Part shown: piece by piece, positions 24,833 through 24,994 of the stretch
Position numbering within the stretch: the first letter of the stretch is position 1
How the letters are laid out: each line of letters opens with the position of its first letter
Source of the DNA: Syntrophales bacterium
GTDB lineage: Bacteria; Desulfobacterota; Syntrophia; Syntrophales; UBA6807
DNA length: 64,000 nt
Direction: 5' to 3'
Assembly (NCBI GenBank): GCA_040767195.1
Contig: JAXGPA010000001.1
Coordinates: 576,001-640,000, forward strand
Program-made: the position numbers and the translations under genes
The notes under the pieces: generated by a model
Told to the model about the DNA's origin: nothing
Database searches by the model: none
Seen by the model: the letters and a program-made list of their open reading frames with translations, nothing else

Positions 24833-24994
24833 CTACTTTCCACTTTCCTCTTCCGCCGCGGCGGAAACTTTCTCTTTACGGCCCGCCACCCGGCAGGCAT
24901 TTCCCGCTCACGTCGAAATCCCCATTTTGGGGAGGATGACCCCCTGGACGACAATCCAGAGAATGAGAACGCCGATGAAAATGAGCCATTCCAT
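24833..24994 (-). CDS. Putative small membrane-anchored selenoprotein (53 aa, UxxxxC)
   Basis: MEWLIFIGVLILWIVVQGVILPKMGIST-(TGA 24910-24908)-AGNACRVAGRKEKVSAAAEEESGK-TAG. Hairpin GCCTGCC-GGGT-GGCGGGC has its loop 16 nt after the TGA. AAGGGA RBS upstream. Confidence 0.65.

Follow-up and report, generated by a model that had tools for sequence, protein, structure and literature searches.

A small membrane-anchored protein family with an in-frame UGA: a predicted selenoprotein from a Syntrophales bacterium and its cysteine-containing homologues

Introduction

On the minus strand of a 64,000-nucleotide stretch of the genome of a Syntrophales bacterium (the window) lies a small gene of 53 codons (24833..24994) whose codon 29 is an in-frame UGA. 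Table-11 ORF calling closes the frame at this TGA (24910-24908), and the question is whether the codon is a stop or is read as selenocysteine (Sec) and, in the latter case, what so small a protein might do. A preliminary description made from the sequence had proposed a tiny membrane-anchored selenoprotein with a redox or metal-binding U-x4-C site that gene callers would truncate or miss. Here we compare the gene with its homologues, with the Sec genes of the genomes that carry it and with its gene neighbourhoods.

Results and Discussion

The gene and its surroundings

The gene opens with an ATG at 24994, preceded at a distance of 10 nt by the ribosome-binding site AAGGGA (25005..25010, minus strand), and RBS-like words also precede 85 of 89 homologues. 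It runs over 28 codons to the TGA (24908..24910) and over 24 more to the stop TAG at 24835-24833, so that the predicted read-through product has 53 aa with the UGA as residue 29. The predicted Sec29 is followed by Cys34 (codon TGC, 24893..24895, minus strand) in a U-x4-C arrangement. When the sequence was re-read, the coordinates, AAGGGA, start codon, TGA, TAG and downstream hairpin were all found as first described. The extended -10 promoter proposed earlier (TGTTATAAT, 25112..25120, minus strand) fared less well: the motif is present, but TGnTATAAT occurs 15 times in the host genome, the copy at 25120-25112 has no conserved counterpart in G001, a genome of the same genus, and a consensus promoter scanner that requires a -35 match listed no promoter there, which leaves this candidate, a motif match in the sequence, as a guess. 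A near-consensus promoter (TTGACA-17-TATACT) is located on the plus strand at 25160-25188, divergent from the small gene and ahead of a diguanylate cyclase gene (25271-26155). Metatranscriptome contigs from runs X3 and X4, which come from one study and break near 25095-25105, cover the gene but also nearly the whole 3.9-kb stretch around it, and transcription is thus not demonstrated by them.

AlphaFold predicts one helix (residues 2-23, 24926..24991, minus strand; pLDDT 87-93) followed by a low-confidence tail, and the helix is hydrophobic with a hydropathy of 2.69. Residues W13, L21, P22 and G25 are conserved and the predicted Sec follows about 6 residues after the helix. According to the positive-inside rule, the placement of Lys and Arg is related to the cytoplasmic side of a membrane protein. 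As these residues are commoner after the helix than before it in 89/89 Sec and 52/73 Cys members, a cytoplasmic position of U-x4-C is suggested, and the composition points to a predicted N-out, C-in orientation of the helix and to a charged tail that is disordered.

A family with an invariant UGA

A single-sequence database search found only one relative, which ends early; P0002, a close database relative, stops at the UGA position. A first locus scan with alignment A1 gave no stretch that was conserved enough. The first search of 61 relatives resulted in 23 hits, 22 of them true homologues with TGA and one with TAG. The latter (L031 in G011, E 0.029, internal TAG) turned out to be a chance hit in the final part of a long open frame, with 3.3 bits against the family profile, and was removed before all counts. 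Using profile searches we then found the family in 185 of 401 genomes of the phylum at E <= 0.01 and in 178 at E <= 1e-4. TGA was present in all of the best 150 matches of both searches, beyond which lie 45 and 35 weaker matches, respectively. For the following counts 89 loci were extracted, which are better-scoring hits and not a random sample, and from which the duplicates L067, L094 and L095 had been removed.

In these 89 homologues from the phylum of the window column 29 is TGA without exception, and none of them ends at this column with TAA or TAG. All three stop codons occur at their true ends (TAA 37, TGA 36, TAG 16), unlike the invariant internal TGA. The frame also stays open behind it in 85 members: an in-frame stop within 15 codons past the UGA was found in 4/89, compared with 41 and 46 in the other two frames and 42+-4 in shuffled sequences. 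Between 11 and 43 residues follow the UGA, and the first Cys appears at +5 in 71/89, at +6 in 10/89, at +10 in three and later or not at all in five. The 81 Cys at +5 or +6 are encoded by TGC (53) or TGT (28), and the one-codon insertions (10/89) preserve the frame. With the second Cys absent in four Sec members and at +10 in three, a resolving Cys is apparently not universal among the predicted Sec forms. Variants were seen in L032, L033, L034; L105, L112, L113 and L131, which either measure 41-42 aa and have U-x9-C close to the C-terminus or lack the second Cys.

The pattern of substitutions could be followed in a clade of 11 members, in which non-synonymous change per codon amounts to 0.16 for codons 1-9 past the UGA, 0.22 upstream of it and 0.73 in the tail, and synonymous change is lowered over the hairpin (0.135 vs 0.365). 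This is what would be expected for a combined protein and RNA constraint, with codons 1-9 past the UGA conserved in their amino acids to the same degree as the helix. Since the Cys is retained in 23/24 members whose stem starts only after the Cys codon, it reflects a constraint on the protein and does not simply follow from the hairpin.

The SECIS-like hairpin

The hairpin (24881..24898, minus strand) consists of GCCTGCC (24898-24892), the loop GGGT (24891-24888) and GGCGGGC (24887-24881), which form a stem of 7 bp including one G-U pair with an energy of about -13.6 kcal/mol and the loop 16 nt from the UGA. The bacterial SECIS (bSECIS) limits given in PMC13188914 are a loop of 3-9 nt, a stem of 4-16 bp, a G in the first two loop positions, a spacing of 16-37 nt and an MFE <= -7.5, and the hairpin of the window lies inside all of them (16 nt, GGGT, 7 bp, -13.6). 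Taken alone it is not beyond chance, with z-scores of -0.48 and -0.93 for short folds and -2.09 for a 76-nt fold. In our own implementation of the PMC13188914 consensus, which is not bSECISearch, 66/89 loci passed and 23/89 failed the strict test, compared with 7-15/89 codon shuffles and 29/150 true TGA stops of the host (8-19% in the controls). The SECIS geometry proposed earlier is thereby borne out, and the hairpin is significant only when taken across the homologues. The loop distance from the UGA varies between 16 and 24 nt in the family. Where Cys is at +5 (71 members), 64 have a base pair between positions 15 and 22 (C-G 43, U-A 11, U-G 10), as expected for compensatory pairing.

Sec genes in the host and in related genomes

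Of the four Sec genes named in the preliminary description, selA and selB are found above cut-off in the host but its assembly yielded neither selC nor selD, and for selC a relaxed ARAGORN search and scans for the anticodon pattern produced nothing beyond noise. Four Fdh-alpha (FdhA) genes of the host carry TGA at the U-H position. The assembly also contains no Ser tRNA, no Asn tRNA and no moeA, and because these are missing as well, selC and selD probably belong to an unassembled block, which is the simplest reading. In G001 both selD and selC are present, selC being flanked by moeA, in regions with no counterpart in the host. A recent loss of both genes is the alternative, which we do not favour over the simplest reading. 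The host assembly (G000) is rated 98.8% complete despite the absence of tRNA-Ser, tRNA-Asn, selC, selD and moeA, and a missing block should be kept in mind in any other work on this genome. Outside the window, a 39-nt stretch (G000:C1:720241-720279) that ends in TTCCGCCA matches the 3' end of the G001 tRNA-Sec with 90% identity and adjoins a stretch of lower GC content (0.45); this 3' remnant of a selC looks like a leftover att site from an element that had integrated at selC in the past. A second, atypical tRNA with a UCA anticodon stands directly ahead of a selB-like gene at L055 (G001:C15:7918-8005) and also at G185:C19:91158-91246. Within the window, an MvhD/FlpD-family gene (7649-8011, minus strand) is free of in-frame stops and thus a Cys form, though the host appears to use Sec.

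In order to link the family to Sec usage selA alone is uninformative: it is present in 378/401 sampled genomes of the phylum, and the family occurs in 8/23 selA-negative genomes, three of which are counted as such from their absence in a listing. All eight of these carriers possess selB and selC, and a signal emerged only after these two genes had been added to selA. Among the genomes without selA, selB and selC 0/11 carry the gene, compared with 185/390 of the others (Fisher p 0.0012); the 11 genomes represent eleven families, and kin are not fully independent in this test. Genomes with the TGA form from Planctomycetota have selB in 9/9 tested cases, and selB is absent in 3/5 tested Cys-form genomes of several phyla. 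The UGA form is restricted to Sec-using genomes, with one exception outside the sample of 401: G017 (85% complete, 420 contigs) carries a TGA variant and gave no selB or selC hit.

Cysteine-containing homologues and their neighbourhoods

A profile was searched against 1.84 billion representatives, of which 1554 matched at E <= 0.001. Among the best 150 of these, 74 carry a Cys aligned to the UGA, the kind of homologue that the preliminary description had proposed to look for, and 65 of the 74 have a second Cys at +5 (C-x4-C); the consensus of the Cys forms at this column is TCMSGAC. Another 42 of the best 150 end directly before the UGA column, 25 have W and nine belong to none of these groups. 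The W most likely results from gene calls under a code with TGA as Trp. The 42 early ends and P0002 bear out the suspicion that gene callers truncate the gene, which is annotated as a 28-29-aa hypothetical protein or missed. The displayed names of the Cys-form matches are 'hypothetical protein' throughout, and the ESM Atlas, queried with a Cys homologue, returned one 'hypothetical protein' cluster at 0.85, which we take as a lead only.

Using the Cys pattern, a genome scan yielded 73 loci, mostly from Planctomycetota and otherwise from Acidobacteriota, Myxococcota, Armatimonadota, Omnitrophota and Nitrospirota. In the phylum of Lacipirellula 18 of 201 genomes match, 16 of them with TGA, and the nine TGA members inspected from this phylum show U-x4-C plus a hairpin. 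A tree built from 125 rows and 37 columns is for the most part poorly resolved and gives no order of the Sec and Cys forms.

The gene neighbourhoods of the Cys forms give the main functional clue, with the proviso that these loci were selected by pattern and come largely from related Planctomycetota. A thioredoxin, rhodanese, MBL-persulfide dioxygenase, TauE, SQR, DsrE or DsbD domain is found within 1.5 kb of 37/73 Cys loci and of 9/89 Sec loci (about three independent groups); for random host positions the figure is about 1.5%. DUF2892 is located near 34/73 and an RsrA-like zinc anti-sigma factor near 33/73 Cys loci, and the respective numbers for Sec loci are 3/89, with DUF2892 adjacent in two of them, and 1/89. 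One Cys layout is ArsR-(Trx)-MBL/rhodanese-[gene]-TauE-SQR-(DsrE), with about 12 Cys-form genes in such clusters. Others are Trx-[gene]-DsbD/Trx, RsrA-like anti-sigma-[gene]-DUF2892, [gene]-CoA-disulfide-reductase-like, Usp-[gene]-DUF302-BshB1-like and layouts with RND efflux genes, where several of the neighbour names are best hits below the curated cut-off. In L170 (2207-2695) a Cys-form member is fused in frame to a thioredoxin above the TIGR01068 cut-off, which may be a true fusion or result from a lost stop in one MAG. In Planctomycetota (L145, L153-L156, L159-L161, L164 and others) we observed a cassette of ECF sigma factor, RsrA-like zinc anti-sigma factor, the gene and a stand-alone DUF2892, which continues with RND efflux genes or with a membrane protein resembling cytochrome bd-I and is possibly an undescribed disulfide-stress regulon.

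The 89 Sec loci have no family-wide neighbour, and the themes that repeat among them are Trx-gene-DUF2892 (G023), DsrE2-gene-DUF2892 (G302) and ArsR-gene-Trx (G525). The neighbours in the window are a sirtuin, TANGO2/NRDE, NUDIX and the diguanylate cyclase, none of them a thiol or sulfur gene, and a search for DUF2892 in the host genome found nothing. The gene for the sirtuin (Sir2/CobB-type deacylase) is located directly downstream on the same strand (23960..24757, minus strand). We considered this operon as a functional clue and rejected it as genus-specific, since the order is kept in G001 and not across the family.

Interpretation and alternatives

The invariant UGA, the open frame with its downstream Cys, the Cys homologues, the hairpin and the link to Sec genes together argue strongly for a read-through of the UGA as selenocysteine, and the gene very probably encodes a selenoprotein. 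It is known that SelB binds such a hairpin and that Sec is inserted. By analogy to this biology, SelB would bind the hairpin of the small gene and insert Sec at codon 29, and the single membrane helix would place the predicted Sec29-x4-Cys34 pair at the cytoplasmic face of the membrane. Recoding is apparently achieved by the ordinary SelB/SECIS system in what appears to be a real, widespread and uncatalogued selenoprotein family.

For the function, the Cys-form neighbourhoods with their thiol and sulfur genes and the thioredoxin fusion favour a membrane-tethered redox relay that is recycled by thioredoxin. The selenolate might take sulfur or electrons from a membrane partner of the rhodanese/YgaP-DUF2892, SQR or DsbD/CcdA type, Cys34 would then resolve this to a selenylsulfide, and thioredoxin would re-reduce it, resulting in a small relay for disulfides or sulfane sulfur. 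Of the originally proposed redox or metal site, the Cys-form neighbourhoods would thus retain thiol/persulfide redox, but the neighbours of the gene in the window itself lend this no support. Given a selenoprotein, we regard a thiol/persulfide redox role, as judged from the neighbourhoods, as reasonably probable, and a selenoprotein that also has this role at the membrane as slightly favoured overall. A wider proposal goes further and is tentative: the family might be a minimal selenylsulfide relay, tethered to the membrane, through which sulfane sulfur or electrons pass between thioredoxin and sulfur enzymes of the membrane (YgaP/DUF2892, SQR and DsbD types). It would then be a bacterial analogue of SELENOK/SELENOS and an overlooked part of persulfide-handling operons in several phyla, and it might be among the most widespread unrecognised selenoproteins of anaerobes.

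The selenoprotein could instead be a redox-switched accessory subunit or signal which binds and regulates DUF2892, a transporter or an ECF/anti-sigma system with no turnover of a substrate. Often the gene comes immediately after a pair of ECF sigma factor and RsrA-like anti-sigma factor and immediately before DUF2892, in many cases with gaps of only a few bases, it shares with DUF2892 a 16-column end motif L-x-x-x-G-I-x-T-C (hhalign probability 78; shuffled controls <=7.7), and W13, L21, P22 and G25 suggest a packing surface. No partner is obligatory, however, as the Sec loci lack a family-wide neighbour and DUF2892 and the anti-sigma factor are found near so few of them, and we consider such a role unlikely.

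Quite improbable is a Sec/Cys pair that binds a soft metal (Cu, Hg or Zn) for sensing, buffering or export. RND efflux genes near the Cys forms (HlyD 20/73, AcrB 12/73), ArsR/SmtB regulators (17/73), extra Cys residues in the tail of many Cys forms and one Sec locus behind an HMA-domain gene would fit to such a function, but sulfur and thiol enzymes together with the thioredoxin fusion predominate in the neighbourhoods, the ArsR protein that was scanned also matches the sulfur-sensing BigR model (below cut-off), and a recurring operon of the merA/copA type was not found among the annotated clusters.

With respect to decoding, the UGA might be read at least partly as cysteine, or the 28-aa and 53-aa forms might both be made depending on the selenium supply. 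The missing selC and selD of the host assembly and the additional UCA tRNA next to the selB-like gene in G001 are in line with this, and non-canonical tRNA/SelB pairs reportedly recode a Sec UGA as Cys; we take the pairs in G001 (L055) and G185 to resemble these. The gene tracks the canonical Sec genes across the sample, though, the host has no second selB above cut-off and its FdhA genes use the same TGA, all of which makes decoding as Cys or by selenium supply very unlikely. That the UGA is a true stop behind a 28-aa membrane peptide, with an RNA element causing the downstream conservation, is hardly conceivable, as 42 of the best 150 hits annotated to end there and an unremarkable single hairpin stand against 89 loci with no TAA or TAG at the column, full-length Cys homologues, a frame that is kept, a Cys that is kept outside the stem and the absence of the gene from genomes that lack Sec genes.

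Comparison with known systems

The predicted selenoprotein shares with bacterial SelB/bSECIS selenoproteins as summarised in PMC13188914 the in-frame UGA, the hairpin with a G in the loop inside the coding region 16-24 nt downstream, the Cys homologues and the link to selA/selB/selC. Table 1 of that paper, which covers 119 bacterial selenoprotein families (2026) and includes the families of Haft and Tolstoy 2025 with their NCBIfam models, contains nothing with the same sequence, U-x4-C motif or one-helix anchor of such size. The nearest spacing in the table is the UxxxxU of TsoB, which differs as a rhodanese/DsbD fusion model of 572 positions. The new deep-Sep families (PMC12013277) include nothing alike by name or motif, and no description was found in the literature that came up for UxxxxC selenoproteins, for the family motifs or for small selenoproteins of these taxa. 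With respect to curated cut-offs, none of 22 Sec members (best E 0.036) and none of four Cys members matched a model of NCBIfam 20.0. Pfam gave no family match, nor did P0001 or any of 41 Cys members match PF11127, and the PDB gave no match (best E 0.66). We therefore call the family uncatalogued, which refers to the names and motifs of Table 1 in PMC13188914 and of deep-Sep and to the NCBIfam and Pfam profiles.

In its predicted architecture the protein resembles the eukaryotic SELENOK and SELENOS as described in PMC10650576, which also have a single N-terminal membrane helix, an unstructured charged cytoplasmic tail and Sec/Cys forms, and for SELENOS a Sec-Cys pair with reductase activity has been proposed there. 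In contrast, a Gly-rich region precedes their Sec, which is the second or third residue counted from the C-terminus, and in the small-gene family 11-43 residues follow and a Gly-rich region is lacking. Sequence similarity is not shown and the SECIS is of the bacterial type within the gene, so that the likeness would be one of topology only and an analogy. DUF2892 (PF11127, the YgaP-like TM domain) is likewise a small membrane protein that ends in a hydrophobic helix and G-I-x-T-C, but its two helices and its conserved C-P motif have no counterpart in the small-gene family, and the shared motif of 16 columns appears too short for a claim of homology. The sqr-pdo-rhodanese operons are described in PMC9163753 as limiting sulfane sulfur and disulfide stress. 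About 12 Cys-form genes are located inside such clusters, and the Sec forms are mostly found outside of them. No mention of the small gene was found in that description.

A new family of this kind would extend the bacterial selenoproteome to a protein present in roughly 45% of the genomes sampled from an anaerobic phylum rich in Sec, and also in Planctomycetota. As the Cys forms tie the family to thiol and persulfide homeostasis, it leads to a hypothesis on how sulfur-rich anaerobes may protect or load membrane proteins. The natural pair of Sec and Cys forms could be used to ask what selenium contributes at the membrane surface, and the small size makes synthesis, labelling and reporter tests cheap, even if the recoding mechanism itself is ordinary.

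Other features of the window

An ORF of 1672 aa with YD/RHS-like repeats is located at 30155-35173 (minus strand) and is followed by several small predicted lipoprotein genes (27575-30293, minus strand). Judged by eye, the layout of 27575-35173 looks like a bacterial polymorphic toxin locus. Scans additionally identified an RNase P RNA (17903-18275) and a tRNA gene (19570-19642), both on the minus strand.
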